Sequence record: NC_052659.1
Source of the DNA: Escherichia phage nieznany
Direction: 5' to 3' (one strand)
DNA length: 64,000 nucleotides
In this document: one piece after another, positions 46,122 to 62,541 of the stretch
How the letters are laid out: the number at the start of each line of letters is the position of its first letter
How positions within the stretch are numbered: the first letter of the stretch is position 1
Notes under the pieces: generated by a model
Told to the model about the DNA's origin: nothing
The model's input: the letters and a program-made list of their open reading frames with translations, nothing else
Databases searched by the model: none
Program-made: the position numbers and the translations under genes

Positions 46122-46480
46122 TTCTCTCCTTCTACAGACTTCTGTTTAACATAAAAGTAAGCACCACGAGCAAGATACAAATCATGTTCAATATCGCTCA
46201 CAGGAAAACCATCTGGATTTTTAAAACCGTCTTCTACAGCCAAAATGAGAGATCGTAAACTGATAGCTAACAACTCCATTTGATCTTGTAGTTTTCTATT
46301 TTCTGCATAAAGGTTTTTGCATTTTTGTTCTGCATTTTTCCATTGTTCTAATGCATGATCATAGTTTCGCATAAGGATAGCTTTTTCTTGTTCACGTTTA
46401 AAAGTTTCTTCACAAATGAAACCTGTGCCTAAACCAGTTTCTTCATCTTTGACAAACACTTCAACAAAATCTTTAGACAT
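46118..46480 (-). CDS. hypothetical protein (coiled-coil-like)
   Basis: AGGAG then ATG 46480. Confidence 0.4.
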   Translation of the reverse strand: MSKDFVEVFVKDEETGLGTGFICEETFKREQEKAILMRNYDHALEQWKNAEQKCKNLYAENRKLQDQMELLAISLRSLILAVEDGFKNPDGFPVSDIEHDLYLARGAYFYVKQKSVEGEK

Positions 46481-46481
46481 A

Positions 46482-46745
46482 TTATCTCCTATTTGCTTTT
46501 GGATACTCCCAACCTTCTGGGAGATCTTCTTTACACATCCACTCAAAAGGCCAGCGACAATAACTATGCCACTTTCCATCGAGATATAAGCAATCTTCAT
46601 CCACTGGTCCACAAGGATTGATAACTACAACACACCCTTTTGCTCGCCAATATTGAACTATTTCGGGGTAAAAACAAGAAACGTCGGTCCACTCCCAGAT
46701 ACGTTCATCATTCAAACGATATGCTGCTGGCAATGTTTCTTCCAT
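46482..46745 (-). CDS. hypothetical protein
   Basis: 87 aa ORF. Confidence 0.4.
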   Translation of the reverse strand: MEETLPAAYRLNDERIWEWTDVSCFYPEIVQYWRAKGCVVVINPCGPVDEDCLYLDGKWHSYCRWPFEWMCKEDLPEGWEYPKANRR

Positions 46746-46749
46746 ATTA

Positions 46750-47196
46750 TTAAACCTCTGTCAAAGAGAAACGCCAATCCTTACTACTACCTACACCAAG
46801 GAAGATATAGTCTCCGGTACTAACGGAATATCCCCCAGCGGGAATCCAATCAGGAATCTCTGGCTTATGGCTGTAGCCATAACGCTCGCCACTCGAATCT
46901 GTTGCAATATAATTAACAAATTCAGGAACCTCTAAAGTTTCACCTTGATACTCTACACGCTTGAAGCCATCTTCCACTTCTTTCTCACCTTCTACCAGAG
47001 AAGCAAGAAGTTTGATGTGAGGGCAAGTGAAATCTTGTCCTGGATAACGTGAACGGATATCAGTTAACAATGCGATCACAGCATCAGATAACTCTTTATA
47101 ATCCTCATATCTTACAAATGTGCCTTCTGTCGGATCATCAGGACACAAACGCCAAACATCATTGCAGTTTACAGCATAATGTCGCACTTTAGTCAT
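46750..47196 (-). CDS. hypothetical protein
   Basis: 148 aa ORF. Confidence 0.45.
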   Translation of the reverse strand: MTKVRHYAVNCNDVWRLCPDDPTEGTFVRYEDYKELSDAVIALLTDIRSRYPGQDFTCPHIKLLASLVEGEKEVEDGFKRVEYQGETLEVPEFVNYIATDSSGERYGYSHKPEIPDWIPAGGYSVSTGDYIFLGVGSSKDWRFSLTEV

Positions 47197-47206
47197 AAAT
47201 ACCCCC

Positions 47207-47605
47207 TTATCGTTGCGTACAATCAGCTTCTAGAGTAAGAACATTCGTTATTGTTTTATCATTTTTTAGAAATGCAAACCAAGCTAAAGTGTCCCGATAT
47301 TCTGTGCGTAGCATAACCACTTCAGTAGTGCCAATAAATTGTTGTGAACCGTACATAGCACTACCATCTTTACTTTTTTCTCCTGTGTATTGCAGAATGC
47401 CACTCATCAAAGCACCACCTGAATTTTTAAGGATAAAGGAGTTATCTTTATTAATGACAACAGAAGCCATTTTCTTAGGACCAGAAATCACTTCACCTTT
47501 CAGATTTTTAACAACCACATCTGACACACACTCATAAACTTGAGACGCATTTGCTGTTCCAAGTGATGCAATGAGTAACAAGAAACCTACGATGATCTTT
47601 TTCAT
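47207..47605 (-). CDS. secreted/periplasmic protein (signal peptide)
   Basis: MKKIIVGFLLLIASLGTANA signal. Confidence 0.45.
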   Translation of the reverse strand: MKKIIVGFLLLIASLGTANASQVYECVSDVVVKNLKGEVISGPKKMASVVINKDNSFILKNSGGALMSGILQYTGEKSKDGSAMYGSQQFIGTTEVVMLRTEYRDTLAWFAFLKNDKTITNVLTLEADCTQR

Positions 47606-47701
47606 ATAAACTCTCCTCTTTGTTTACCCGATGCGCCCCCTGTTGGGCAGAAAGGGTTGTACGCAAAATTTTTAGCTCCAATCGTCGGGTGTCCCGACTC
47701 C

Positions 47702-47908
47702 TTACGCTTTTAATGTTTTAACAGAATGACAAGCTTTGCAAACAATAACCGGAACAAGTTCATCTCCATTATCCGCATAAATCACTGTTTTCTTCATTCT
47801 GCCACCGCATGAACAATACTCTGTATGATCCGCAGGAATATTAAATATTCCGTAATCACTTTCATACTGTTTCTTACATATGGACACTGCTTTCGTAAAA
47901 CAAGACAT
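47702..47908 (-). CDS. small zinc-ribbon protein
   Basis: CSCGG...CKACH. Confidence 0.35.
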   Translation of the reverse strand: MSCFTKAVSICKKQYESDYGIFNIPADHTEYCSCGGRMKKTVIYADNGDELVPVIVCKACHSVKTLKA

Positions 47909-47910
47909 GC

Positions 47911-48132
47911 CTACTCCGCAAGAACCTTCACTTCGTCAGAGAAGAATACGTAATCACAACCTTCCCAAACATCTTCTTCAAACCACTCCCATCCCTCGAC
48001 TTTGGACATTTCTTCTATCGTAACAAAGAATGTTGTCATATCCTCACTAACAAGATGTGCTTCAACAACAAAAGGAATCTGAACATTCTCAAAACCAACA
48101 TAACCCAATACATCACAAACTCTAATTTTCAT
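47911..48132 (-). CDS. hypothetical protein
   Basis: 73 aa ORF. Confidence 0.4.
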   Translation of the reverse strand: MKIRVCDVLGYVGFENVQIPFVVEAHLVSEDMTTFFVTIEEMSKVEGWEWFEEDVWEGCDYVFFSDEVKVLAE

Positions 48133-49780
48133 ATTATGCTCCTTTGTAGATTATGTTGGTGCGTTCACACTCTGCCACCAGCAAGCCAAGCTTTGTAAAA
48201 CTTCATTAGACGTAAGCTACTCAACGGAACATTTTTACTCTCTTGCATGATAATCTCCTCTCATCGTTAGCCATCTTTCATGGCAATCATCAATCACCAA
48301 CATCATACGATCAATCTTAGGGAATTACAATCGAATTATCATAGGGGATTCCTATCAATTATCCCCTATATACCGATTATTTTTGACACCCCACTCTTGT
48401 ATAAAAAGTAACCCAAAATATCTACGGGGAGAGATTATTTCGGGACACCCTGTTTCATGGCAATCATGGCAAGAATATCTAATAGAATCAATATCATATG
48501 GCAAAAATCATGGCGCATACGTAAGAAGTGCTTAACGCGAATTTTCGGGCCGTCAGGTCCACGCAGCGACAATTCCCAAATATCATGCGAATGAGAATAA
48601 TTATCATTCGTATTCAATGACTTATGCAAAGCTCATGCCAACGTAGCGACAAGGTGGGCCACTTGATTATAAATCACACAAACACTTATTTATCAATGGT
48701 TTGGCAACCTCATCATATGACGGAACAATGTCAACTAATCCCGCTCATGACAAGCAGACTATTATTTATATGAGAATGATTATTATTTAAACGTTTATTA
48801 ATATAAAAACTAGAATAAATCAAGATTATTCTGATTTTATTTACGTTTAAGAGAAGGTGCTCAACATATCGCGTAGCGATAGTATTCGCCCCCCAAAAGA
48901 TTAGCCTTTATTTTCTTGTATGTTTATACACTATGTGCACACTATGCAACCTGTCGCTATTCGCTCATGTTGCTACGTGCAATTATTCATCTTGCTAATG
49001 ATGATCACACTGAACGATAGTGATAACTCTTGTAATTACCACAATGATTATTGTTATTGCGCTAATGTTATGATCTTGGTAATTACATATAATGCTAATA
49101 ATAAGCCAGCGCAATAAGTGTAAGCGTCATTACGCTTGCAATTATTGCAAGCTACGCAGTAACAAGAAATAACCGTCACCGATGGTTATGATTGTTGGGG
49201 TGTAGTTGGCTTATTATTAGCTCGCTATGTGTCCGGCATAGCGTGCTAATGATGACTCTGTGAATGATTAGTTTTGTAATGATTTCATTCAGGCACTATT
49301 TTGCTAATAGTTATTATTTTAATGGTTTCGTTTGTTATTGTTCGTTAGTTGGTTGTTTTGTCATGTTATCGTTATTTTGCTTAGTATTCATCATGGTTTG
49401 ATTGTTTGTCGTTATCAATCATCTTGCTATTATTCCTTTGATTATGATTAGTTTGCTTATTGTTTTATGTTGTTTGTTGGTTAGTTGTTGCGAACTATTA
49501 TCAACATTATAGTTATGCACTTATATTGCATAGATAAACATGGATAGATGATAATGGTTATCATTGCACCAGAAAGGAGGTAAAAGGGTGTTTTTGATGG
49601 TTTGTTGTTGGTTGTTGATCGATTTTAACCGCTTTAAATGGCTCTCTAACAGCCTGTAACCCTGGGATGTATGGTTATTCGTTTGCTGGTTGATTAGCTC
49701 GATACCACGATTTATTCAGTTTTGTTCTGTGTCGGTTTTTCATAGGCGAAAGCTATCAACATTGTTCGGGCAAAAAGAAA
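48133..49780. other. 1.65 kb noncoding, repeat-rich, strand-compositionally skewed region (G/T-rich tract 49300-49520; repeated GCTAAT(G/A)(A/T)T and CGTAGCGAC motifs)
   Basis: No convincing ORF; low-complexity GT-skew; at least five GCTAATGATGA-like copies (about 48991, 49058, 49092, 49243, 49303) and CGTAGCGAC-like copies in both orientations. Confidence 0.5.
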
Positions 49781-49797
49781 GGGCGCTTGGTGCGCCC
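49781..49797 (-). terminator. terminator hairpin GGGCGCACCAAGCGCCC followed by U-tract on minus strand (same element repeated at 52132)
   Basis: Identical 17-nt hairpin with AAAGAAA/TTTCTTT flanks at 49781 and 52132. Confidence 0.55.
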
Positions 49798-49813
49798 CTT
49801 GTTTTGTTGTCGA

Positions 49814-50047
49814 TTATAACGCTTCATAGATTGAGTAGATCCGGTTTGCCAGGTCATTACGAAAGCGGAATTTTTCATCACGTTTGATCATCAGATCCTT
49901 AAAACCATATTCTTTCAATGCTTCATTAACTTTATGGCGGCAAACGTTCATATTATCCTGCGCGTCACCAATAAACTTATTACTGTGATGCATTGCTTTG
50001 ATCTCTTCCTCTAATACCAGGGCAACTACTGCGATCATCTTTTTCAT
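49814..50047 (-). CDS. hypothetical small protein (PeSL-array gene)
   Basis: ORF preceded by stem-loop and promoter cassette. Confidence 0.4.
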   Translation of the reverse strand: MKKMIAVVALVLEEEIKAMHHSNKFIGDAQDNMNVCRHKVNEALKEYGFKDLMIKRDEKFRFRNDLANRIYSIYEAL

Positions 50048-50101
50048 GCGTCTATCCTCTTCCTATTGCGTTTAATGGGGCGTTACCGCCCCGCTTATGG
50101 T

Positions 50102-50338
50102 TTATTGATTGATGTTATGATGAAAGTTATTTTCTTCAATAGCTTTTAAAATAAAAGCCGTGATCGCTTTCGTGTCTACTTGTTCGAACGTATCAGAATA
50201 AGCCCAATAATAATCATCCCCTACTTTCGGCGGGTAAACCTGGACAAGGAGATCGCCACCTGGTTGATCTATAAGCTCAACATGCAAGCCGGATGATTCA
50301 GCGGTTTTAACGGCGTTTAATACTGTTGCAATACTCAT
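50102..50338 (-). CDS. hypothetical small protein
   Basis: 78 aa ORF. Confidence 0.4.
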   Translation of the reverse strand: MSIATVLNAVKTAESSGLHVELIDQPGGDLLVQVYPPKVGDDYYWAYSDTFEQVDTKAITAFILKAIEENNFHHNINQ

Positions 50339-50382
50339 AATCTTTTCCTTTCTGATGTGGGGCGTTGCCGCCCCTTTGTTGA

Positions 50383-50682
50383 TTAGATCGCTGTTTCCAG
50401 TAGTTCGGCTAACGTCTTACCGCCTGATAGTTGGTCTAACGTTTGCTCTTCTGGCAAGAAATTAGCTGATATTAAACCGACTTGATTCCCTTTGTGCCAG
50501 TTAGCCTGGCGGATGATTCCATCCTTTAAGGATTTTACCGCCATTGTGCAACCGTCGCCAAATGATTCATTTTTATGGTCCATCACTTCATAAGCGCCCA
50601 GTTTGCTGCTGTTAGGCACCATTAACGCGAACACATCACCAACAACCAGTTTTTCTACGGTAACAATAGCGATAGTTTCCAT
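50383..50682 (-). CDS. hypothetical small protein
   Basis: 99 aa ORF. Confidence 0.4.
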   Translation of the reverse strand: METIAIVTVEKLVVGDVFALMVPNSSKLGAYEVMDHKNESFGDGCTMAVKSLKDGIIRQANWHKGNQVGLISANFLPEEQTLDQLSGGKTLAELLETAI

Positions 50683-50758
50683 TTTATTTTCCTCATTATC
50701 GGCGGCACCATTGCCGCCCTACAAGATACATATTACCAGACTAAGCCGACTTGTCAAA

Positions 50759-50869
50759 CTATTTTTTCTTTTTCTTTGCTTCCAACCGTCTAAGGTTACG
50801 GCTGGACTTATTACGCAAGGCGCTCAGATCGTCGTACCCTTTCCATGCTTGCATATCTTTCGGATTCAT
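50759..50869 (-). CDS. small basic peptide (36 aa)
   Basis: AGGGGGTAAC then ATG; manual translation. Confidence 0.25.
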   Translation of the reverse strand: MNPKDMQAWKGYDDLSALRNKSSRNLRRLEAKKKKK

Positions 50870-50878
50870 GTTACCCCC

Positions 50879-51079
50879 TTACTTGTTAGCCGGATCATAT
50901 ACCAGGACCGCGCCACTTGCTTTCACGCTTTCCGCTTCATAGTTGCGCAAATCGTTTTCTGTAAGATTGAGCGCGATCACTTCCTCGATCTCGATACCAG
51001 TGGCAAGGGCGATCTCTTTGATAATGTCTGCTATTTTCATGGTGTGTACCTTATAAGATGATTGATAAGATAGTGACAA
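50879..51079 (-). CDS. hypothetical small protein
   Basis: 66 aa ORF. Confidence 0.4.
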   Translation of the reverse strand: MSLSYQSSYKVHTMKIADIIKEIALATGIEIEEVIALNLTENDLRNYEAESVKASGAVLVYDPANK

Positions 51080-51267
51080 CGAAAGCGATTATACTGATGG
51101 CAAATGTCATCTTTTTACCTTCGGATACTGCCGGATTCTCTACCGTGTATTCTACTGTGTACTTGCTCATCGTGTAATCCTCTCGTTTGCTTTGGGGACT
51201 ATTCCCGCCGCCCTATGAATTAAATATACACTATCTCAAAATGATTGCAAGCCTTTTTCTAAATTAT

Positions 51268-51582
51268 TTATGCAGTAAACAAACCATCATTTACAACGGC
51301 GGCGATGATCTCCCGTGCCATTGATTCAGGGAAAGGGGCGCTATAGTCCTGGCTTGTCTCGTCGGTGTCAGTGATACAATGATAAGCTAACGAGTAAAAG
51401 CCTTTACTAACTGTTTTCAGTGAGACGATGATCACTCGGTCAAGCTTATTGGTGAATGTTGCCGTTAATGTGTTACCCTCCTGCGTCATGTTGGACAAGT
51501 AAGCGAGATCATTAATCAGGGAAAACATTAGCACGGTGTTAGCTTTACTCATGATTGCATCCTCAAAGGGGCGCGGCACCAT
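51268..51582 (-). CDS. hypothetical protein
   Basis: 104 aa ORF. Confidence 0.4.
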   Translation of the reverse strand: MVPRPFEDAIMSKANTVLMFSLINDLAYLSNMTQEGNTLTATFTNKLDRVIIVSLKTVSKGFYSLAYHCITDTDETSQDYSAPFPESMAREIIAAVVNDGLFTA

Positions 51583-51623
51583 TGCCGCCCTACACGATAA
51601 CTATAACACAATGTAAAACAGGA

Positions 51624-51830
51624 TCAACCTTTATTTTTCCACGGTGTCAGCTTGTTAATCATTGGTGATAAATAGCGTTTACCAACGTAAAACAGTACGC
51701 CAACTGATGCAACGGCGGCGACCTCATGCATAGCCGACGGGAAACGGGTATCATAATAAGATCCAATAATAGCGATAGCGGCAACGGCTGCAACGTCGAT
51801 AATGATTTTTTCTTGTTTTGCGGTGATCAT
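51624..51830 (-). CDS. small membrane protein
   Basis: hydrophobic segments VAAVAAIAIIGSY. Confidence 0.4.
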   Translation of the reverse strand: MITAKQEKIIIDVAAVAAIAIIGSYYDTRFPSAMHEVAAVASVGVLFYVGKRYLSPMINKLTPWKNKG

Positions 51831-51915
51831 AATATTTACCTTTTTGTATGGTGGGGAACTATTCCCCGCCTGATGTAATACAGTTTAACAGGTCCGGTTA
51901 TGGTGTCAACCGTTT

Positions 51916-52101
51916 TTAAAGATATTTTATGCTAATAACGTTTTCCGGTTTAACCTTGTTATAATGTGCATCAACATAGATCAAACCATCGTCAGAAAAG
52001 CCCAGGATCACGCCCTGCGCAATAAAACCGTATTCGTCACGGTAACGCACGGCTATTTTTAATGTTGCGCTGTACGCTGTTTTAAGCTCGTTTAAAATCA
52101 T
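51916..52101 (-). CDS. hypothetical small protein
   Basis: 61 aa ORF. Confidence 0.35.
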   Translation of the reverse strand: MILNELKTAYSATLKIAVRYRDEYGFIAQGVILGFSDDGLIYVDAHYNKVKPENVISIKYL

Positions 52102-52156
52102 TTTTGTTTATCCTCTACATGTAAAAAGAAAGGGCGCTTGGTGCGCCCTTGTTATG

Positions 52157-52303
52157 TTAATCCTCTAAATCCATCCAATTATATTTGTCACTCTTCCCGC
52201 GCTTTGTTTTATTACGCTTGTCGCCTTTGCGGATCACTTCCTCGTTCCAGGCCTTGCGGATCTTGGAAGATTGAATTTTTTCTGCGCGATTAGATGTATT
52301 CAT
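52157..52303 (-). CDS. small basic protein (48 aa)
   Basis: Manual translation MNTSNRAEKIQSSK...; terminator hairpin immediately downstream. Confidence 0.3.
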   Translation of the reverse strand: MNTSNRAEKIQSSKIRKAWNEEVIRKGDKRNKTKRGKSDKYNWMDLED

Positions 52304-52382
52304 TTTGTTTCCTCTTCATATGAGCGGCACCATTGCCGCTATATTGTTAATTTAAACTGTTTTGTAAAATTGTCAAGGTTTA

Positions 52383-52736
52383 TCATTCATAAGAGCAAGC
52401 AAGGATCACGCCTGCAATATAAAGCCAATAATTTTCCCTTTCTCGTTGGATTTTATCATCGCGGCTATTCTCTTTAATGTATCCCCAGGATGTTAACAGG
52501 CGATCAATTTCCCAATATTCGAAAGCGATATTGATATCTGATGGCAAACCTTGTAACCATGATGCAAGTGCTTTAACAATACTATAATTAAAACGTGATT
52601 GGTTATCAGGGTACCAGTACTCGGAATTAAAACGGCGCATCAATTCCGCGATCTTCTCTTTTTCGGTTGTAATACCGTAATCATTAAAATCGATAGCGGC
52701 AAGGATGTACTCTTTAATTGCATTTTGTGCTTTCAT
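52383..52736 (-). CDS. hypothetical protein
   Basis: 117 aa ORF. Confidence 0.4.
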   Translation of the reverse strand: MKAQNAIKEYILAAIDFNDYGITTEKEKIAELMRRFNSEYWYPDNQSRFNYSIVKALASWLQGLPSDINIAFEYWEIDRLLTSWGYIKENSRDDKIQRERENYWLYIAGVILACSYE

Positions 52737-52815
52737 GGTCTTTCTCTCTTTTTGAGCGGGAGCTATTCCCGCCCTACGTGTAACAGTTTACTGAAAATTA
52801 AATCCGTGTCAAGCT

Positions 52816-53037
52816 TTATTTTGTTACTACCATTTGGTACCCTGTTTCAATGTTAGTAAATACTGTTATCCCGTCCTGGCGTTCACTCATTAGCATACAA
52901 GGCGCTAACATCCTTTCTACTGCCTTGCACTCGTTGTAAACGGCGGTTATATCTCCTGCGGCCTTGTCTTCTGTAGTAAATGTCTCGTTTACGTAAACCT
53001 GACCAGCAACAACGGCGACAATAGCAAAAGTGATCAT
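52816..53037 (-). CDS. small secreted/membrane protein
   Basis: MITFAIVAVVAGQVYV hydrophobic N-terminus. Confidence 0.35.
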   Translation of the reverse strand: MITFAIVAVVAGQVYVNETFTTEDKAAGDITAVYNECKAVERMLAPCMLMSERQDGITVFTNIETGYQMVVTK

Positions 53038-53116
53038 AATGTTTTTTCTCTTTATGTGTTTCGTTTCAATTAGTTGATAATACAGCAATTTGCAGATTAG
53101 TCTTTAGCAATTCATG

Positions 53117-53335
53117 CTATTTACTCACAACAATATCGAAAACAAATTTTTCTTTGTTGTCTAAGCTCACGTATCCGATTCGACCACGCAATCCGAGAGT
53201 AGTGCCGTATTCGTAACCATCAAGACCTTTAACCTTCCAATCCATGCCCATTAAAACCGCATTATATTTCTGACCAACTACAAAAGCGCCACCAGTTGAT
53301 TCAATGCAAACAACTTTAATTTTACGGATTGCCAT
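53117..53335 (-). CDS. hypothetical small protein
   Basis: 72 aa ORF. Confidence 0.4.
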   Translation of the reverse strand: MAIRKIKVVCIESTGGAFVVGQKYNAVLMGMDWKVKGLDGYEYGTTLGLRGRIGYVSLDNKEKFVFDIVVSK

Positions 53336-53413
53336 TTTCTTTCTCTCTTTCTGGTGATTGGTTTCTCTTCTCTATAGCGCCCATTATAAGGCGCTATAAC
53401 GAAAAGTCAACGA

Positions 53414-53581
53414 TTATTTTTTAAGGCTTAAAGTACCTAACTTGTCAGCATGACGTAGACCAGGGAAGATCCATTTTCCTGATTCATCTTTTACAGGGGC
53501 TTTAAGCGTAGCGCCCAGGTTGGCGGCGTTAACTTTACGTGCAACGTTGCGAGCGGCTTCACGGGTAGCGAAAGTGATCAT
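53414..53581 (-). CDS. small hypothetical protein (55 aa)
   Basis: GAGGAAA then ATG; manual translation MITFATREAARN... Confidence 0.3.
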   Translation of the reverse strand: MITFATREAARNVARKVNAANLGATLKAPVKDESGKWIFPGLRHADKLGTLSLKK

Positions 53582-53676
53582 GATATTTTCCTCTTCTCTT
53601 TGTTAGGCGGTGGACCATTCCGCCGCCTTGATGTAATACAGTTTACTCTTTTTCTTTCCCGTGTCAACAATCTTTT

Positions 53677-53904
53677 TCAGATTAATTCATCCAGGCATAA
53701 CAGGCGATCAACGTTGAGATCGGTCAGGCTGATGGTTGGCACCTGGTAGGATTCGATGTACTCGACGCTTGCATATTCCCCAAAATTAGCAATAGCCCAC
53801 TTATTCAAGATCTCACATACATCATTAATCTTTTTGTTTGTTACAACTGCAATAACCTGGGAAGTGCCAACGGTGCCGGATACGCGAACAATATTGATAG
53901 CCAT
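53677..53904 (-). CDS. hypothetical small protein
   Basis: 75 aa ORF. Confidence 0.4.
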   Translation of the reverse strand: MAINIVRVSGTVGTSQVIAVVTNKKINDVCEILNKWAIANFGEYASVEYIESYQVPTISLTDLNVDRLLCLDELI

Positions 53905-53995
53905 AATCTTTAATCTCTCTGTTGTTGGCGGGAAACCACTTCCCGCCCTATGTGATACATCTTACACTAATTTTAAACGTTGTCAACTGTTTTTA

Positions 53996-54235
53996 TTACA
54001 TTCCAACCATCGCGGCGCGGATCGCTGTAGTGCTATACTTGAAACCGTCTGGAGTTTTATCTTGTCCAGTTTGTTCCAGGAATAACATCATATCACGGGC
54101 AGCATCATTACGATTAGTATTAGCGGCGATAAATTCTTTCGCCAACCGATATAATGATTCATCGTTATTAATCCAAAGGCTTACATTCCAGTGAGTTTTA
54201 TTTTTGTGACCTAAGAACATTTTTGATTTAGCCAT
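53996..54235 (-). CDS. hypothetical small protein
   Basis: 79 aa ORF. Confidence 0.4.
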   Translation of the reverse strand: MAKSKMFLGHKNKTHWNVSLWINNDESLYRLAKEFIAANTNRNDAARDMMLFLEQTGQDKTPDGFKYSTTAIRAAMVGM

Positions 54236-54324
54236 GATATTAATCTCTTTTTCAGTGAGGCGGGAAGTATTCCCGCTCTCTATGTAATACAGTTTACTCT
54301 TTTTATTCGTGCTGTCAATGCTTT

Positions 54325-54690
54325 TTATAAATCTTTTTTACGTTTAACATCGCTCGCATGACTGTATACAGTGATCCCATTGTCACGGCAAAAACGGGAA
54401 AGATACGCGCCGCGTGAAAACTCTTTACCTTCCATATTAATAACCTTGCTAAATTCTTCCAGGGCGACGGTATCAAAATGATCACCATAGCCATATTGAA
54501 ACGGAACGTTAACCACCTCGATCAGTTTACCGCCGATCTCAACGTCAACCATTAAAGAAAAATATGTGTTACCGTAAGACTGTTGAAACCAGCGACGGGC
54601 GCTAATGTGCACCGCTTCAATGCTGGATAATTCAATTTTAGCCGTGTTAGCCAGGGTAGCATAAGCGGAAACATTGATATTAATAGCCAT
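54325..54690 (-). CDS. hypothetical protein
   Basis: 121 aa ORF. Confidence 0.4.
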   Translation of the reverse strand: MAININVSAYATLANTAKIELSSIEAVHISARRWFQQSYGNTYFSLMVDVEIGGKLIEVVNVPFQYGYGDHFDTVALEEFSKVINMEGKEFSRGAYLSRFCRDNGITVYSHASDVKRKKDL

Positions 54691-54787
54691 GATGATAATC
54701 TCTCTTTTTGGTTAGTGGGAAGTATTCCCGATAAAAGTTATTATGCTTATACTATCACTCATTGTCAATAGTATAAGACTAAAACTT

Positions 54788-54967
54788 TTAACGATAATCG
54801 TTATAGGCTTTATTGACCTGGCGAATGTAACATTCGAAAGCAAGATCAATGTATTCGTATTCACGCACATAATCACCATAGGTCACTACATACATTTTTA
54901 AAGTTTCCTCATAAGCCAGGAGGATCGAATCTAAACCTATAATCTCAGTTTTTGCAATGATAGCCAT
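54788..54967 (-). CDS. small hypothetical protein (59 aa)
   Basis: Manual translation MAIIAKTEIIGLDS... Confidence 0.3.
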   Translation of the reverse strand: MAIIAKTEIIGLDSILLAYEETLKMYVVTYGDYVREYEYIDLAFECYIRQVNKAYNDYR

Positions 54968-54987
54968 GATGTTAACCTTTTATTGTT

Positions 54988-55044
54988 GGCGGCACCATTG
55001 CCGCCCTACGTGATAAACTATACCAGAAGTTTAAACAGTGTCAA
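54988..55044 (-). promoter_or_regulatory. exemplar PeSL cassette: -35 TTGACA (55044-55039), -10 TATAGT (55023-55018), hairpin GGCGGCAATGGTGCCGCC (55005-54988)
   Basis: Seen in sequence. Confidence 0.6.
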
Positions 55045-55050
55045 CCGTTT

Positions 55051-55413
55051 TTATTCGTAAATTTTACCGCTTTCGGCCCATACCATAACGCGGCGCATAC
55101 TATCCCAAGTGTTTTGATCCAAGTTTAAGCCGTGCAACTCTTCGGTACTTCCCAGACCAGGTACCGCTTTGTTGTAAGTCGCATATAAGCGCCCTTGATA
55201 CTCATACGCCAGAGTAAGATCCGTTTGAATCATCTTTTTAAGCATAGCATTAAGCATCATATTAGCGGCATGTTGATCACGTTTTAGCGGTAACATGTCA
55301 ATAAGGGCGCGATAAGCTGAAACATGAATATCAACCGTTTCACGTGGTAAATTTTTCATATCATCGCGGAAAGATACCAGATTAAACATGATAGTATTGA
55401 TTTGCTTGCTCAT
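55051..55413 (-). CDS. hypothetical protein
   Basis: 120 aa ORF. Confidence 0.4.
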   Translation of the reverse strand: MSKQINTIMFNLVSFRDDMKNLPRETVDIHVSAYRALIDMLPLKRDQHAANMMLNAMLKKMIQTDLTLAYEYQGRLYATYNKAVPGLGSTEELHGLNLDQNTWDSMRRVMVWAESGKIYE

Positions 55414-55681
55414 TGTGTTACCCTTTTTTGTTTTGGCGGGGAAGTATTCCGCCGCCCTATGTGATACATCTTATCAGATTAAAAAACGTTGTCAAGAATA
55501 TTTTTAGAAAATAATAGCCGCTACTACAACCCAAAATGGAACGGCTAGAATGATAGCGTTAATCGTTCCAACCGTCAAGCTATTTTCTTTATTAATCATT
55601 GTAAGCCTCTTGCATAATTTCACTATGAGCGGCACCATTGCCGCCCTACGTGGTAAATATTATGCCAGTGGCGGCGATATG

Positions 55682-56248
55682 TCAAAGACTATTTTCAAAG
55701 TTTTCTAGTGCGATCCTTTTTTCTTCCTCTGTCGGCTGATAATCAGGAAAAGCATCAACACACAACAACGGCGGGATCTCTTCGTACTCTTCCTCTTCCG
55801 TTGTCTCCTCGTCTTCCTCCTGGGCTATGGCTGCAATTTTGGCTAATTTTCTTTCAGCTTGAATCAATTTACCATCAAGTACGTTTTTTGCCATGTTGTA
55901 AGCGGTCCAGGTGATGCGCTTACTTTCCAGGGCCTGATCGAGCGCCGCTATCTTGCTGGGGTATTCATCCAGGACACGAAAAGCTGGATCAACTTTGTAC
56001 AAAGGATTATCTTTCGCGCCGTCGCTCGCATCTTCCGCACTGGATAAATCAGCGTTACCATTTGCCAGCCAGCCAGGGCGCACATAACGCGCTTTTACGT
56101 TGCCGTTACTACGTGCTAATCTGTTACCTATTTGCTCACCACTATATCCCGTGGATTCATCGATAAGATGATCGGGAATGATGCGCGGATCATCTGCTTC
56201 ATGTTTTACCCAAGACTGGATCACATATTCGCGGCCCATATTAACCAC
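55682..56248 (-). CDS. hypothetical protein with acidic C-terminal region
   Basis: 188 aa ORF. Confidence 0.45.
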   Translation of the reverse strand: MVNMGREYVIQSWVKHEADDPRIIPDHLIDESTGYSGEQIGNRLARSNGNVKARYVRPGWLANGNADLSSAEDASDGAKDNPLYKVDPAFRVLDEYPSKIAALDQALESKRITWTAYNMAKNVLDGKLIQAERKLAKIAAIAQEEDEETTEEEEYEEIPPLLCVDAFPDYQPTEEEKRIALENFENSL

Positions 56249-56498
56249 CTTTTTTCAACAATTGGCATACTTTAAAAAGACTTGCTGAATCCTTGCAAGG
56301 GTAGAAAGATGTACGATAATCACGTACGCCAACCTTGAGGATCTCGATGTTCTCGCATGTTGTTTGATCAAAGATATTTATTTCATCACGCCCCCTTATA
56401 TAAACATAGTGGGGATGTATTAACGCATATTTTGCTAATCTGTAAAAAGCGTTATCTTTGAACGCGATCACGTGACCTTTTAATTTGATGTAAAACAT
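56241..56498 (-). CDS. hypothetical small protein
   Basis: 85 aa ORF. Confidence 0.4.
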   Translation of the reverse strand: MFYIKLKGHVIAFKDNAFYRLAKYALIHPHYVYIRGRDEINIFDQTTCENIEILKVGVRDYRTSFYPCKDSASLFKVCQLLKKGG

Positions 56499-56574
56499 TC
56501 TACCACCTTACAAATAGCGGGAACTATTCCCGCTTTATGTAACATATTAACAAATTATTCGTTAATGTCAAGCC

Positions 56575-56847
56575 TTAAAGCAAAAACGCTACATCTTGCG
56601 CTTTTAATGTAGTGTCAACCATTTTCGGGCTTTTATAATCAACAAAGCGCGCGGTTTTTTCAATAGCAAAACCGAGATAATCTTGTTTATTGAATTTACA
56701 TTCTTTCTTAAATGTTTCCCGCGCCACGGTGATCGCTGCGTCCAGGGATAAACGCCCGTCAATATTGATATTAGCGAAAGATCCGCCACCGCTCATAGGT
56801 TTACCAGTTGTGCCAGCTACGATCATTGTTGCGCTATATGATGCCAT
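56575..56847 (-). CDS. hypothetical small protein
   Basis: 90 aa ORF. Confidence 0.4.
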   Translation of the reverse strand: MASYSATMIVAGTTGKPMSGGGSFANINIDGRLSLDAAITVARETFKKECKFNKQDYLGFAIEKTARFVDYKSPKMVDTTLKAQDVAFLL

Positions 56848-56937
56848 GATGATAATCTCTCTTCTGTTACGAGCGGGAAACCACTTCCCGCCCTATGTGA
56901 TACATCTTATCAGGTTGTTGTTTGTTGTCAATAGTTT

Positions 56938-57135
56938 TTATTCTATTCCTGCAATTTGATTAACGCGCTTGCATTTTGTAGCGTGCTGGTCTTCTGTAAT
57001 GACTCCCATTTCTAACAGGGAATCAATGAAAGATAAAACCGTTTCATGATCATCCTGGGGGTGACTGAACTCAGTAAAACCGTTTACCACTACGTTGATT
57101 TGTCCAGCTTTCGCCACAATGTGCAATGTTGCCAT
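56938..57135 (-). CDS. hypothetical small protein
   Basis: GGAG then ATG 57135. Confidence 0.35.
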   Translation of the reverse strand: MATLHIVAKAGQINVVVNGFTEFSHPQDDHETVLSFIDSLLEMGVITEDQHATKCKRVNQIAGIE

Positions 57136-57321
57136 GATCTTAACTCCAAATAGTGAGCGGCACCATTGCCGCCCTACAAGATGAATACTACGCCGCCGTC
57201 TGGTTAACGTCAACCATTTTTCAATCTTTTTTATTTTCTTTTTGCTTGCTATATATAAAGAAAAGGGCTATTATCTTTCTACCGCGCCAACCAGGGCGCA
57301 CAACAAAGAAAGGGCGATACC

Positions 57322-57585
57322 ATGACAACTACATTACACCTTATGCACTCATTGGGCTGGCAAGGCGGCACGGTGCACCAGGTAGCAAGCGCAACGGGCT
57401 TAAAGGTTGAAACAGTTCTCAACCTGGGCGATCATAGGGTGGAAGAAATAGATCATTTTGATACGTTCGCAAATGGTTATCTATGGGCTTGCAGTGGCGG
57501 CGGGGAAAGCAAGATACCACCAGGGGCGCGGGGCGATATGTATTTTTGGTTAGGTGTCCTATCCTGGCAAGAAAACAAAAAATAA
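57322..57585 (+). CDS. hypothetical protein in GC-rich island (plus strand, opposite to neighbours); coding status uncertain
   Basis: 87 aa ORF with AAGGG upstream; local GC content visibly higher than surrounding phage DNA. Confidence 0.3.
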   Translation: MTTTLHLMHSLGWQGGTVHQVASATGLKVETVLNLGDHRVEEIDHFDTFANGYLWACSGGGESKIPPGARGDMYFWLGVLSWQENKK

Positions 57586-57587
57586 TC

Positions 57588-57616
57588 TTGACAAGCCCAG
57601 GGATCGGGCTTATACT
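57588..57616 (+). promoter_or_regulatory. near-consensus sigma70 promoter TTGACA-17-TATACT on plus strand
   Basis: Seen in sequence; spacer AGCCCAGGGATCGGGCT is itself an inverted repeat. Confidence 0.5.
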
Positions 57617-57845
57617 GTTTTACATACAGAAGAGGAAGCGCCACCCCCACGGCGTAAAGGCGGGGCTAACATACCAGGGGGCACTGGTTGGAAGGTTGAT
57701 CGCCGGTAGGCTGGGCGCTATATATTTGTAAAGAAATGTAAAGATAAAATAATCGCTTGCTTTCCTAGCTGGATCTGTTATTCTTATTACATGGCGAGGG
57801 GACACGGGAGCGCGAGACAAACACCGCCCCTGCGCGTCATTCTCT

Positions 57846-57953
57846 AAATGAGATTGATTCTTATTTAATAAGGTAAATGACAATCATTCTCATTTATAAA
57901 CTTAAATGCGAATCATTATCATTTGCATTTCCATATGAGAACTCTTCTCATTT
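57846..57953. repeat. four 21-bp palindromic sites (AAATGAGA-N5-TCTCATTT type) at exact 29-bp periodicity: iteron/operator-like array
   Basis: Sites begin at 57846, 57875, 57904, 57933. Confidence 0.6.
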
Positions 57954-57975
57954 TCACCTGCATAAAAATTTTTGT

Positions 57976-58152
57976 AAACTTTAAATTTTGCTTTTGTACT
58001 TTCATTTTTGTAAAAGCAAAAAAACTTTAAATACTGTGGGCGCGCAAAATTTTTAAAATTTTCCTTGACTTTTGAGTTTTGTTTTGTATCTAACATTTTA
58101 AGATAATTTTCCTAAACTTTAAATTTTGGTTTTCAACTTTCACTTTTGTAAA
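57976..58152. repeat. two copies of a 39-bp direct repeat AAACTTTAAATTTTG(C/G)TTTT..ACTTTCA(T/C)TTTTGTAAA (57976-58014 and 58114-58152) in an AT-rich noncoding region
   Basis: Seen in sequence. Confidence 0.55.
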
Positions 58153-58394
58153 TTCTTAAAAAGTTTAAATAATTTGAGGGATTTTTGAGATAAAAGATAG
58201 TGGGAATTTGATATAACCTTTAATCTTATTGGTAAACCTTCAGGAACCCACTCAGATCGAATCCTAGTGATGCAAACTGAAAAAGACAAGGGTTTGTATA
58301 GGACAAAATAACAGGCTCTCTACGGTGCTGTAGGAGCCTTATTTCTGGGCTACAAAGTGACACCTTTGTTCTAAAAATGAAAAAAGTTAAAATA

Positions 58395-58937
58395 TCACAA
58401 ATATCGTCTTTGCGGTATTTTGTCTGGGAAAAGTATTTCGATCAGTTTATTATGATATTTGCCTAAAAGATTCTGCCCTTTCCAGGTAGCAGGGTTTAGC
58501 ACCCCTGGTTCATACATTCCCATTCCAATACCGTAAACCTTATCGTAAGGACTTGCTTCAACAAACGTTTTGTATTGGTAAAGGTGTAAGTCTGCATACA
58601 AATCTGGATTCTGTACATATTTCAAGCATAAGCCTCGCATAACAATACGCTCACGGTTCTCTTCCCACATATCATTATTAAAACCAGATACCGCTCGACC
58701 CATACGTTTGTAGTATGCTTGTTTCCTCTCGTTGTCACGTATAGTTGAGTGATCAAGGATAGCTGCTGCAATCGCATGATCCTTGAACAGCAAAGCCTTA
58801 CGCCACATCATATATTGCTCAACACAACAGAAAGTCTCATTGTAACCTGGTTCAGTTTCTGTAAAGGGTGCAATATACCAATTACTAAACACATCTTTAT
58901 GTGAAAAGAAGAATACATATTCATCAGTTATTCTCAT
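58395..58937 (-). CDS. NADAR / YbiA-like (DUF1768) domain protein
   Basis: N-terminal YVFFFSHKDVFSNWYIAPF and EQYMMWRKALLFKD resemble the NADAR family signature. Confidence 0.5.
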   Translation of the reverse strand: MRITDEYVFFFSHKDVFSNWYIAPFTETEPGYNETFCCVEQYMMWRKALLFKDHAIAAAILDHSTIRDNERKQAYYKRMGRAVSGFNNDMWEENRERIVMRGLCLKYVQNPDLYADLHLYQYKTFVEASPYDKVYGIGMGMYEPGVLNPATWKGQNLLGKYHNKLIEILFPDKIPQRRYL

Positions 58938-59149
58938 TTTTTCATGCCTTCTAAAACTTTAGCTTGCCCGTCTTGAAAAGCTTTCATCAGAACTATCTTA
59001 AGATTGACTTCCAAACGTTCTTCATCCTCTCTATAACAATCCAACACTGCTTTAAGTTCATCATAGTGGTTCAGAATAGGTTTAAAGATTTCATGATCTG
59101 CTAAACGTGCCATAGTTTCTCCTTTGTTAGTCCATCCACCAGTAGCCAT
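58934..59149 (-). CDS. hypothetical protein
   Basis: 71 aa ORF. Confidence 0.4.
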   Translation of the reverse strand: MATGGWTNKGETMARLADHEIFKPILNHYDELKAVLDCYREDEERLEVNLKIVLMKAFQDGQAKVLEGMKK

Positions 59150-59492
59150 AAACTGCGTCTGCGTCGATGAGTTTGTGTTTGTTGTTCCGCATGTAGTCTA
59201 AGATAAGTAGACGTTTATTGTATCTGGAGAGATTATGACCCTCTTTTCCGCCATAGTCAAAATATTTTGCAAGATCTTTACACTCAAACAAAATCAGTTC
59301 GGGAGTTTCTTCACACTGGTCTGTCTGGTACACTTGACGAATGATCATGTATACATCGTCGTCTTCCGCTAAATGCTCTACTGGTCCACATCCAGCAGGA
59401 ACAAATTCATAGTCCCATCTGATCAGATGTTTCTCTACTGCTTCAAAGAAATCCATCCTTTCATTGCGCATAATTTGAACGTCAACTAACAT
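59127..59492 (-). CDS. hypothetical protein
   Basis: 121 aa ORF. Confidence 0.4.
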   Translation of the reverse strand: MLVDVQIMRNERMDFFEAVEKHLIRWDYEFVPAGCGPVEHLAEDDDVYMIIRQVYQTDQCEETPELILFECKDLAKYFDYGGKEGHNLSRYNKRLLILDYMRNNKHKLIDADAVYGYWWMD

Positions 59493-60946
59493 GTTTCCTC
59501 CTCTCTCATTATTCCACCTGCTTGGTTGATAGCACTTAAGACGATAGCCAAATCCTCGCGCAGGAAGGTTTCACTATGACCATCTTTCATGTGCAAGCGT
59601 TCTACACAGCCAATAGACGGTAGAATCTGATCAGTCTTAGACTTTAGCTTACTCTCTAACGCCCTGCAAGCTTGGTAGGACGGCAGATCGAACAATGCTA
59701 TACGGCGCATAGAGTAATTGTTGTTTGCATTCTGCCCTTTGATCCTGATATCACTGTCCTTTGCAATCCCCAACTTGTAAGCTCCCGTGTCTTCTCCGTA
59801 CTCATCAAGAATAATATTGATGTAAAATTCTTGCATATTTCTGTTCTTACAGCCTGGACAACCTTTCCCATTGAGATAATCGGTAGGTGTGATCGTTTGC
59901 TCTCCATGCTCCCTACATAGATATTTAAACTTGCTGTTATTGCTTACCTTATCAATGAATCCTATAAATTGATCCCCTCGTTCCTGGCAAGCTTTGGTCA
60001 TACGGTAGGCCCATTGTTCAGGAGTGTAATGATAATATTTAGAACAACGGCAAGGAAGGCCACCCCTTTTCAAATGACTCATCTTCATCTCAAATTTATT
60101 ATCGCATAAGCCTTCTTTACAATAATCATCCTCTGCACATATAGGACATTCTACAATCCAGTAAACCTGACGACCTAATCTATCTACTCTATCGCTACGA
60201 TAATATTTACGCTCTACATTATCAGGACAAGCTTTTATAAAATCTTCAACATGTTGTTTATCCTCCATAGTATTCCTTTGTTTCGTCATTTCTCTTTGAC
60301 AACTGTAGCATCCAGTCCCTTGTTTAGCACTGTTTACAGTGGTAGTGCACCATTGACCATGAACCTTACACTCACAAATCAACTTAGTGCGGGAACCGTT
60401 CCACGGTTCCACATAGCCTCTAACAATCCAGGGTTTTTCTTTATAAGCTTCTTCTACTTCTTCTTTATGTTTCTCCCATGCAATCGATGTTCTTTCTCTG
60501 TTTGCTTCTCCCATACACTTCCTGCATCCACTCCCGTTTTTCGCAGAAGATATAGAAGTAGACCTCCACTCCCCATGTAAAGCACAACAACAAACCAGTT
60601 TAGTATTCCATCCTTTCCATTCTCCGTGCCATCCTGTAACAGTCCAAAACTTACCTGCCTGATTGTAAGTGGTTTGCACTTCTTCTTTATATTGCTCCCA
60701 GGTTTTTGATTTGTTTATAGATACTGCTTTACTTATAATCTCCCTACCGCATTCTGGACAACCCCTCCCTAGTTTAGCGGTATTTATGCTTGTTGTTTTC
60801 CATTCTCCATGCAGAGCACAGATGCATCTAAGTTTAGTTTTATTGCCGTTCCACGGCTCAATATAATCTACAACAGTCCAAGACTTACCTTGATAAGCTT
60901 GTTTTATATCTGTTTTATATTGTTCCCAAGTGACTATTTTTGGCAC
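59486..60946 (-). CDS. zinc-finger repeat protein (three or four about 65-aa Cys/His modules) with possible C-terminal GIY-YIG-like nuclease domain
   Basis: Repeated W..Y.EPWNG..TKL.C.C..HGEW.T....AK.G.GC..C modules; C-terminal FYINIIL-x9-YKLGIA-x6-R resembles GIY-(10)-YIG-R. Confidence 0.35.
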   Translation of the reverse strand: MPKIVTWEQYKTDIKQAYQGKSWTVVDYIEPWNGNKTKLRCICALHGEWKTTSINTAKLGRGCPECGREIISKAVSINKSKTWEQYKEEVQTTYNQAGKFWTVTGWHGEWKGWNTKLVCCCALHGEWRSTSISSAKNGSGCRKCMGEANRERTSIAWEKHKEEVEEAYKEKPWIVRGYVEPWNGSRTKLICECKVHGQWCTTTVNSAKQGTGCYSCQREMTKQRNTMEDKQHVEDFIKACPDNVERKYYRSDRVDRLGRQVYWIVECPICAEDDYCKEGLCDNKFEMKMSHLKRGGLPCRCSKYYHYTPEQWAYRMTKACQERGDQFIGFIDKVSNNSKFKYLCREHGEQTITPTDYLNGKGCPGCKNRNMQEFYINIILDEYGEDTGAYKLGIAKDSDIRIKGQNANNNYSMRRIALFDLPSYQACRALESKLKSKTDQILPSIGCVERLHMKDGHSETFLREDLAIVLSAINQAGGIMREEETC

Positions 60947-61034
60947 ACCTCCCCCTTTAGCTATTAGTGCGAGCCTACAACAAAAGAATAACTAAAATCC
61001 CTCCATAACAAATGCCCCTTGCGGGGCATCTTTA

Positions 61035-62530: not shown

Positions 62531-62541
62531 AAACTTCCCTC

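Follow-up and report, generated by a model that had tools for sequence, protein, structure and literature searches.

Promoter-early stem-loops (PeSLs), described in RB49/phi1, PST and nt-1 (Arbiol et al. 2010, PMC2839356; Comeau et al. 2014, PMC4122927), are the closest known counterpart of the locus studied here, a dense array of small minus-strand genes in Escherichia phage nieznany (NC_052659.1). The array lies within a stretch of 64,000 nucleotides, which we refer to as the window. Both PeSLs and the repeated units of this array are composite elements of about 80-100 bp and share the same order of parts: a stop codon in an A/T-rich stretch, a sigma-70-like promoter, a GC-rich stem-loop, a Shine-Dalgarno (SD) sequence and a start codon. 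Both cluster upstream of ORFans in a hyperplastic part of the genome, and in both the indel joints between close relatives fall inside the units, with crossovers between the -10 box and the ATG or in the stem-loop. Published reports of PeSLs are confined to T4-like phages (PMC2839356, PMC4122927), and we found no prior description for the Phapecoctavirus group.

The two systems also differ in several respects. The lineage here is Stephanstirmvirinae, and there is no blastn homology to T4-likes. While the hairpin of our array occupies a fixed position 9-11 nt after the -10 box, T4-type PeSLs fall into five positional classes, with the stem-loop mostly between or over the promoter hexamers (PMC2839356). 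Here the arms read GGCGG/CCGCC and the apex AAT[A/G]G, in contrast to the polyG/polyC arms of PeSLs, and there is one dense array per genome instead of about 50 units distributed over several regions. Termination at the stem-loop and excised mini-circles from recombination between neighbouring units also belong to the description of the T4-like PeSLs.

Three further systems invite comparison. The 5' stabilising stem-loops of ompA and papA (Belasco laboratory, PMC3997798) share with the array a stable hairpin placed a few nucleotides from the 5' end (predicted in our case), an unstructured leader with the ribosome-binding site (RBS) after the hairpin and the lack of a terminator tail. Unlike them, the present element is repeated about 16 times in a mobile cassette and also stands at promoterless positions, and its start site is a predicted one. 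Lambdoid morons (promoter-gene-terminator) are likewise autonomous small expression units with accessory genes of unknown or host-interaction function. However, morons have no conserved flanks and are thought to have been inserted by illegitimate recombination, whereas the flanks here are a conserved repeat that is itself a recombination substrate, and the units are arranged in tandem and share the orientation of the genes around them. Integron cassettes with their attC sites resemble the array in being tandem arrays of small genes that are separated by imperfect inverted repeats and undergo cassette gain and loss. They differ from it in that the array has no adjacent integrase, has one promoter per cassette and shows crossovers that are variable and homology-dependent.

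The best reading of the locus is an array of PeSL-like cassettes in a new phage lineage, which is not surprising in principle. All PeSL features examined were found in it, namely the promoter, the stem-loop, an A/T-rich edge with a stop codon, SD sequence and ATG, clustering in front of ORFans in a hyperplastic region, and recombinant joints. We found no sequence relatedness to the RB49/phi1 PeSL and no T4-like genome, and the units, whose hairpins are followed by 8 nt containing 0-3 T, do not look like intrinsic terminators. Integron or attC features were absent as well: the cassettes have their own promoters and variable crossovers, and the only recombinase-like gene is an open reading frame (ORF) with a resolvase domain 6.5 kb away. 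Taken together, we consider it probable that this is a hyperplastic, PeSL-like array of early-gene cassettes that combine a recombination substrate, predicted promoters and 5'-terminal hairpins stabilising the mRNA.

Architecture of the cassette array

Every intergenic stretch of the array was examined, which yielded 17 predicted sigma-70-type promoters, 13 of them with an exact TTGACA (coordinates in Table 1). A preliminary description of the window had counted about 25 genes, each with a unit of its own. The dense minus-strand array was confirmed, but it holds 24 genes (31-185 codons), 17 promoters and 16 hairpins downstream of a promoter. Similarly, the spacing from the -35 box to the -10 box, given earlier as about 17 bp, has this value in 3/15 detected units and is 16 bp in 12/15. 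The -10 boxes fit TAnnnT, several promoters carry an extended -10 TG, and the consensus upstream of TTGACA is AAAAAAA. In all intergenic units, the upstream stop codon sits in an A/T-rich stretch 5' of the -35 box, and the SD sequence and start codon are found at the 3' end. In 16/17 promoter units, a distance of 9-11 nt separates the -10 box from the start of a GC-rich hairpin, which is followed by an A-rich leader with the RBS and then by the start codon. The units share more than had been listed before, namely an initial transcribed block of 10 nt, GTATCACRTA, which fills the interval from the -10 box to the hairpin.

This combination of elements is largely confined to the array. In 64 kb, there are 11 matches to the pattern TTGAC-N15-19-TAnnnT-N5-12-GGCGG compared with 0.05 expected, and 10/11 lie within 50.7-57.2 kb. 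Matches to a covariance model of the hairpin were restricted to 51.8-57.2 kb of the window, plus one weak match. Over the first 45 nt after the -10 box, 13/15 detected units fold at -12.5 to -17.7 kcal/mol, with z values of -2.5 to -4.7 against dinucleotide shuffles. Five hairpins had been described as identical; the 18-mer GGCGGCAATGGTGCCGCC has two exact copies only, and six copies are counted if up to two mismatches are allowed.

Some units deviate from the common plan. The -35 boxes of units 51627 and 51250 are degenerate, the hairpins of 54768 and 51250 are weak, and unit 53410 has an inverted repeat (ATAGCGCC/GGCGCTAT) over its -10 box and no downstream hairpin. Seven genes lack their own promoter (they start at 56239, 53037, 52101, 51040, 50869, 50338 and 50047). 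Four of these seven start 1-10 nt after the preceding gene, one follows the internal terminator at 52130-52150, and two follow promoterless hairpins with GNRA-type loops. The latter two, with the sequence GGGGCGG(C/T)AACGCCCC, form a class apart from the promoter units. The preliminary description had cited both of them (GGGGCGGCAACGCCCC and GGGGCGGTAACGCCCC) among hairpins that differ in sequence and keep their pairing; while selection for pairing was supported (see below), these two examples belong to the promoterless class. In phi92, the counterpart of the hairpin at 50360-50375, identified by the common RBS, lies in a full promoter cassette.

A search of 45000-64000 on both strands against Rfam 15 gave no match at E <= 1, and a search for transfer RNAs was negative. 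Public records of these phages have no promoters or stem-loops annotated in the array, and the RefSeq record of phi92 marks RBSs only. Both intrinsic terminators of the array carry an AAGGGCGCACCAAGCGCCCTT core; with this common core, the terminators at 52130-52150 and 49778-49800 are themselves a dispersed repeat.

Recombination at the cassettes

Junctions were mapped by blastn of the window against nine relatives (including the loci L005-L009). Indel junctions repeatedly fell inside cassettes, and the longer genome carried the cassette as a direct repeat on both sides. Correspondingly, a single window cassette aligned to two places in longer relatives, which is seen as overlapping high-scoring segment pairs (HSPs; Table 1). 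Three-way alignments revealed hybrids that follow the upstream copy through the -35 box and spacer and then change to the downstream copy. At c53667 (alignment A4), the sequence from the hairpin onward equals the downstream copy of the relative, with the switch inside the common AGTAAACTGTATTAC. At c50757 (A5), the switch lies inside the common hairpin GTAGGGCGGCAATGGTGCCGC, and at the L006 joint (A6) it lies inside AAAAAGAGTAAACTGTATTACAT, a 23-bp common block over the -10 box and the initial transcribed region. The window cassettes c53667 and c50757 are recombinants of two flanking cassettes of the relatives. Moreover, a unit in L009 (6140-6270, A8) is a mosaic of a promoter similar to c55044, a hairpin type similar to c53986, and the RBS and gene of c54768, which indicates that sub-segments are exchanged between cassettes in addition to whole-gene indels. 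The earlier view of the cassettes as PeSL-like recombination hotspots was thus borne out by indel joints and chimeric cassettes in the comparison with nine relatives.

In the mechanism we propose, recombination is the first step and the one directly visible in these alignments. The core of about 45 nt (-10 box, initial transcribed block and hairpin) recurs as direct repeats every 300-650 bp and is a substrate for short-homology recombination. Crossovers in identical stretches of 15-23 bp delete, insert or swap whole genes and always restore an intact unit of promoter, hairpin and RBS, as PeSL cassettes do in T4-like phages.

The crossover points are variable, lying in the -10 box or initial transcribed block in A4 and A6 and in the hairpin in A5, with a mosaic in A8, and each falls in the longest identical stretch. 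This fits short-homology recombination and not a site-specific reaction. An integron-like shuffling, in which a phage recombinase would act on the folded hairpin, could draw on a protein with a Resolvase N-terminal domain encoded about 6.5 kb from the array, and the authors of the PeSL study had speculated on a helper protein recognising the stem-loop (PMC2839356). Yet the crossover positions differ between events, other indels rely on microhomology outside cassettes, and every cassette has its own promoter, unlike integron cassettes. We rejected this model because of the variable crossover points and attach next to no probability to it. The resolvase-domain protein itself (225 amino acids (aa), 42626-43303, minus strand; Pfam PF00239, E 5e-18) has a counterpart in a relative that is annotated as 'serine recombinase gin'; the variable crossover points argue against its taking part in the cassette shuffling.

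Conservation along the unit and pairing of the hairpin

Conservation is unevenly distributed along the unit. The spacer that separates the -35 box from the -10 box retains about 0.3 bits per position, compared with about 1.3 bits for the -10 box, about 1.0 bit for the initial transcribed block and 1.2-1.8 bits for the 5' arm of the hairpin. As a recent duplication would keep the spacer equally, something appears to maintain the segment from the -10 box to the hairpin, and this patterned conservation argues for function over mere repeat age.

For the analysis of pairing, 194 promoter units from ten genomes were pooled, corresponding to 127 unique 45-mers. An anchor-based count, with stems anchored on the GCGG motif and structures from RNAfold, is biased in that only pairable positions are scored; it showed four invariant core pairs. 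Outside this core, pair 3 was C-G in 45 and G-C in 38 unique sequences with zero mismatches, pair -2 was G-C in 39, G-U in 37 and A-U in 6, and pair -3 was paired in 71/84 with six types (GC, AU, UA, GU, UG and CG). One internal position is C.A in the window cassette c53667, C-G in L005 and U-A in phi92, and some variants have matching three-base insertions in both arms. A whole-cassette MAFFT alignment (A1) was dropped for pair counts because the 3' arms of the hairpin types were out of register.

A formal covariation count was based on an Infernal alignment of 150 rows, with a covariance model built from type-B hairpins and many type-A and type-C variants left out, and on 500 shuffles. The fraction of paired cells was 91.4% (shuffled mean 87.7%), seven pairs were changed on both sides (shuffled mean 2.4), and the covariation score was 0.160 (shuffled mean 0.095; slid registers 0.011-0.108). 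For each of these three measures, 0/500 shuffles reached the observed value. Together, the two counts support the view that the pairing of the hairpin is under selection. Regarding the compensatory covariation asserted in the preliminary description, two-sided changes do exceed those in shuffles, but the signal is limited, as there is no variation in the four core pairs.

The gap between the GGCGG and CCGCC arms ranges from 8 to about 14 nt. Such a variable gap fits a hairpin and not a dimer site of fixed geometry on duplex DNA, and a dimer operator on duplex DNA was rejected for this reason. As the GCGG...CCGC pattern is palindromic, per-strand counts of it are uninformative. Comparison of folding energies showed that the sense RNA is more stable than the antisense RNA in 62/83 unique segments and less stable in 18, with a mean difference of -1.3 kcal/mol, and G-U pairs outnumber A.C 1x1 mismatches by 39 to 11. 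From these figures, a folded single strand of sense polarity is favoured as the likely form of the element.

These patterns also bear on the possibility that the units have no function beyond the promoter, the hairpin and flanks being hitch-hiking remnants from serial duplication or gene conversion of one ancestral cassette. The many near-identical copies, the mosaics with their ongoing exchange between cassettes, the decayed copies 51250 and 54768, and the promoters without a hairpin (19%) would all suit this explanation. Nevertheless, a nearly unconserved spacer beside conserved segments is unexpected from duplication alone, pairing has been maintained via two-sided changes and arm insertions across two genera, and there is a strand bias towards the sense RNA. 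We regard such hitch-hiking as highly improbable.

The apex sequence AAT[A/G]G was found in 67/98 unique hairpins and across stem types, where about 3% would be expected by chance. Common descent might be the reason, or else recognition by a factor. In the latter case, hairpin and initial transcribed block would form a recognition site for a phage or host factor, be it an RNA-binding regulator, a nuclease or a DNA-binding protein, and about 16 early genes would be co-regulated as one set, for example in an early shut-off. Such a site would account for conservation beyond what stability needs, as seen in the apex and in the invariant GGCGG/CCGCC arms, and for the roughly 1 bit per position kept in the initial transcribed block next to a free spacer. 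On the other hand, common ancestry combined with segment exchange could preserve these bases without any factor, the arm spacing varies by 6 nt, which speaks against a dimer site on duplex DNA, and neither a candidate binding protein nor an Rfam match was identified. Overall, a factor-binding site seems improbable. The same doubt applies to the more specific idea that the hairpin is a shared RNA tag, composed of the GGCGG/CCGCC arms, the AAU[A/G]G apex and the 5' leader, through which a dedicated factor might switch or process the whole array. If this were true, the cassette would represent a portable post-transcriptional address, and captured genes would automatically join the early regulon. 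Processing by RNase III was rejected, since stems of 7-10 bp are too short for this enzyme.

Possible roles of the hairpin in transcripts

With respect to expression, the sequence features suggest two further steps of the proposed mechanism. Host RNA polymerase would fire all promoters at the onset of infection, giving rise to many short transcripts. A start site expected 6-8 nt after the -10 box would place the hairpin 2-5 nt from the transcript 5' end, at about +3, and a hairpin at this position may hinder RppH and 5'-end-dependent RNase E and thereby prolong mRNA life. Both enzymes require single-stranded 5' ends, which explains stabilisation by 5' structure in described cases (PMC3997798). 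In transcripts reading through from an upstream gene, the same hairpin might act as a 3' barrier to exonucleases or as a partial attenuator. The most economical reading is a dual role, in which the hairpin would give its own transcript cap-like 5' protection and would be a 3' exonuclease barrier or partial attenuator for read-through.

In line with the preliminary description, the hairpins have no U-tract: their 3' flanks (10 nt) consist of 60% A and 11% T, and a terminator scan of the minus strand of the array flagged only the two terminators at 49778-49800 and 52130-52150 and no cassette hairpin. By sequence, the hairpins are consequently not canonical intrinsic terminators. That the distance from the -10 box is fixed in 16/17 units is more easily reconciled with a role in the unit's own transcript than with a signal that stops transcription of the upstream gene.

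Several observations weigh against a recombining array of 5'-stabilised early transcripts. In the literature on Phapecoctavirus, phAPEC8, phi92 and rV5, which offers generic promoter counts and no promoter, stem-loop or transcript maps, we found no start site, transcript end or half-life for this phage group. The one PeSL stem-loop put to an experiment, that of PeSL211/210, cut expression as much as rrnB T1 when placed between a promoter and lacZ, and its authors report it to be an effective terminator (PMC2839356), contrary to the stabiliser reading of the preliminary description, so that a role as terminator or attenuator is not dismissible on the missing U-tract alone. The hairpins at 50360-50375 and 50077-50092 persist without a promoter, the one of 53410 lies over the -10 box and can therefore not be a 5'-terminal element of its own transcript, and 37/194 promoter units in the ten genomes (about 19%) have no stable hairpin. 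Concerning the pairing, the alignment behind the formal count is model-fitted and includes antisense rows, the near-palindromic element being recovered on both strands. In addition, the covarying copies are paralogues that exchange segments, which leaves few independent events, and the core pairs are without any variation. Finally, a minority of the indels lie outside cassettes. A 1.85 kb deletion at 50016-50029 arose via 14 bp of microhomology inside two ORFs and created a chimeric gene, one gene is inserted at the RBS junction 50880/50881, and the insertion 53045-53358 is without flanking cassettes. The enrichment of junctions in intergenic stretches is also partly expected from selection for intact genes.

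Part of this evidence would suit a terminator or attenuator, in which the hairpin stops or damps upstream transcription and insulates each cassette, so that expression does not build up along the array. This applies to the rrnB T1-like effect of the PeSL211/210 stem-loop on lacZ, to the hairpins that persist between genes without a promoter and to the hairpin over the -10 box of 53410, which only upstream transcripts could contain. Insulation would plausibly be needed by 17 strong promoters in the same direction. Apart from the A-rich 3' flanks without a U-tract, however, the phage has two canonical terminators with T-runs and hence uses standard terminators where needed. A pure terminator would be free to occupy any place from the stop codon to the RBS, and a position before the promoter would be more logical for it, whereas the hairpin is fixed in 16/17 units; in T4-type PeSLs the position of the stem-loop is variable (PMC2839356). 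We thus judge a terminator or attenuator role to be unlikely, and stabilisation of the own mRNA remains our preferred reading. The fixed placement of the hairpin at about +3 makes the question of stabiliser versus terminator cleanly testable.

Distribution among related phages

Over the whole array interval, identity to Phapecoctavirus genomes (for example Ro121c4YLVW, tuntematon and Mt1B1_P17) amounts to 96-97%, and the phAPEC8-like myoviruses among the closest matches have genomes of about 150 kb. The source genome is a Phapecoctavirus of the Stephanstirmvirinae, a phAPEC8-like myovirus and not a T4-type phage. A blastn probe consisting of the single 88-nt cassette c53986 matched 137 phage records, which belong to the Stephanstirmvirinae (Phapecoctavirus and Justusliebigvirus, including phi92) and to a few rV5-like phages; no T4-like phage was among them. 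The units accordingly resemble the RB49/phi1 PeSLs by analogy and not by homology.

Arrays orthologous to 49778-57213 are present in nine Phapecoctavirus relatives and in phi92, with sizes of 9-13 kb compared with 7.4 kb here. The same architecture was found in phi92 and in a Serratia Justusliebigvirus, the latter with at least 14 units of the family, and the rV5-like phage slur12 has one weaker look-alike unit within the 7.7 kb examined. In MH051333 (150 of 151.7 kb scanned), hairpin-model matches and family units were confined to the orthologous array of 11 kb and one solitary copy. Neighbouring small-gene blocks in this genome are tightly packed without intergenic gaps, which makes the array architecturally distinct. 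The solitary unit is located far from the array. It stands immediately upstream of a gene with the annotation TerC-like integral membrane protein, and the pair has the look of an accessory gene that is driven by a cassette but is not part of the array. Several near-identical genomes carry Campylobacter, Klebsiella, Pseudomonas or Acinetobacter as host label, yet they are 86-97% identical to coliphages of Phapecoctavirus, and these host labels may be unreliable.

These findings extend the shuffling of promoter-hairpin cassettes to unrelated large coliphages similar to phAPEC8 and phi92; one rV5-like phage has a weaker look-alike. This suggests a convergent and general solution by which fast-changing early accessory genes can stay expressible. 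Phapecoctaviruses are widely isolated for phage therapy, and the array is the most variable part of the genome between near-identical isolates. The core of about 45 nt allows promoters to be annotated, forecasts variation in gene content and offers landing sites and expression units for engineering.

Array proteins

All 24 products fall into PHROG families of unknown function, except for one of 39 aa labelled 'membrane protein', and a Pfam search with 10 of the 24 proteins gave one match, DUF7249. A hydrophobic helix is clear in two of the products, the peptides of 31 and 39 aa, and the 68-aa and 99-aa proteins are borderline; the earlier wording 'several membrane or secreted' was generous. 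The array is the expected place of host-takeover or anti-defence genes, and from this context such roles of its proteins are plausible. The 77-aa ORF at 49814-50047 is chimeric: residues 5-77 correspond to residues 67-139 of the 139-aa family phrog_12277, and its first codons derive from a different gene.

Table 1. Coordinates of cassettes, hairpins, terminators and indels (promoters as -35 box, spacer length in bp, -10 box; dG, folding free energy).
Feature	Position	Strand	Promoter	Hairpin or core	Remarks
Whole array	49778-57213	-			24 small genes, 17 promoter units, 2 promoterless hairpins, 2 intrinsic terminators
c57213	57136-57213	-	TTGACG-17-TAGTAT	57156-57173, type A, GGCGGCAATGGTGCCGCT	RBS, ATG 57135; dG -15.5, z -2.6; relatives diverge at 57148-57168
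c56931	56848-56931	-	TTGACA-16-TAAGAT	56870-56894, type B, GGGCGGGAAGTGGTTTCCCGCTC	
c56571	56499-56571	-	TTGACA-16-TAATAT	56514-56536, AGCGGGAATAGTTCCCGCT	Alignment boundary with divergent relatives at 56573
c55685	55600-55685	-	TTGACA-17-TAATAT	55628-55645, type A	Upstream of 31-aa hydrophobic peptide
c55495	55414-55495	-	TTGACA-16-TAAGAT	55433-55458, GGCGGcGGAATACTTCCCCGCC, single bulged C	
c55044	54968-55044	-	TTGACA-16-TATAGT	54988-55005, exact GGCGGCAATGGTGCCGCC	Partner in L009 deletion joint; replacement-block boundary at 55052
c54768	54691-54768	-	TTGACA-17-CATAAT	54717-54729, weak, GGGAATACTTCCC	dG -5.5; joints at 54701 (L007) and 54721 (L009)
c54318	54236-54318	-	TTGACA-16-TAAACT	54257-54279	Upstream partner in L006 deletion joint
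c53986	53905-53986	-	TTGACA-16-TAAGAT	53925-53949, type B	
c53667	53582-53667	-	TTGACA-16-TAAACT	53606-53627, type C, GGCGGCGGAATGGTCCACCGCC, C.A mismatch	Recombinant of two cassettes kept separate in relatives; partner in L006 deletion
c53410	53336-53410	-	TTGACT-16-TATAAT	ATAGCGCC/GGCGCTAT straddling -10	dG -1.0 downstream of -10
c52812	52737-52812	-	TTGACA-16-TAAACT	52753-52775	Wholly missing from L007
c52376	52304-52376	-	TTGACA-16-TAAATT	52323-52340, AGCGGCAATGGTGCCGCT	
c51909	51831-51909	-	TTGACA-16-TAAACT	core 51854-51866, GGGGAATAGTTCCCC	Partner in L008 deletion joint
c51627	51553-51627	-	TTGATC, TATAGT	51572-51589, type A	-35 overlaps upstream stop codon
c51250	51171-51250	-	TTGCAA-16-TATATT	decayed, GGGAATAGTCCC	Precedes 39-aa membrane peptide gene and two coupled genes
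c50757	50683-50757	-	TTGACA-16-TAATAT	50701-50718, exact 18-mer GGCGGCAATGGTGCCGCC	Recombinant joint; about 1.5 kb of relatives absent here
Promoterless intergenic hairpin	50360-50375	-		GGGGCG-GCAA-CGCCCC, GGGGCGGCAACGCCCC	GNRA-type tetraloop
Promoterless intergenic hairpin	50077-50092	-		GGGGCG-GTAA-CGCCCC, GGGGCGGTAACGCCCC	
Intrinsic terminator	52130-52150	-		AAGGGCGCACCAAGCGCCCTT then TCTTTTT	Inside array; terminator scan
Intrinsic terminator	49778-49800	-		AAGGGCGCACCAAGCGCCCTT core then CTTTTT	Array end; terminator scan; junction with L007 at 49802, edge of terminator
Solitary complete cassette	MH051333.1 position 4400 (locus L011, 4400-4475)	+	TTGACA-16-TAAGAT	ATATCACATGAAGCGGGGAATAGTTCCCCGC	
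Missing from window	50702-50768				About 1.5 kb absent; HSP overlap 67 bp
Missing from window	53577-53653				One 213-nt ORF absent; HSP overlap 77 bp
Deletion in L006	53657-54232				Two genes
Deletion in L009	54721-54960				One gene
Deletion in L008	51599-51866				One gene

Neighbouring regions

Just upstream of the array, a gene-poor stretch of 1.2 kb contains four copies of a palindrome of about 21 bp (consensus AAATGAGAATCATTCTCATTT) at a spacing of 29 bp (57845-57953), and the tuntematon record has a repeat_region marked at this site. By eye, we take the palindrome to resemble the E. coli Fur box GATAATGATAATCATTATC. Related half-sites (TGAGAATGATTATTATT) are found at 48579-48796, in the gene-poor 47.6-49.8 kb. 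The palindrome array could be an operator or an iteron set.

The genes just upstream of the array, on the minus strand of 58395-62174, include one for a NADAR-domain protein (58395-58937), one for a protein of 486 aa in which CapR homology domains occur (59486-60946) and one for an AAA-type ATPase (61035-62174). On the other side, about 2 kb (47600-49800) are without an ORF of at least 90 codons, with 33-37% GC at 48-49.5 kb, a sign change of the GC skew at 49000-49999 and several short direct and inverted repeats; this region may be a non-coding control or origin region.

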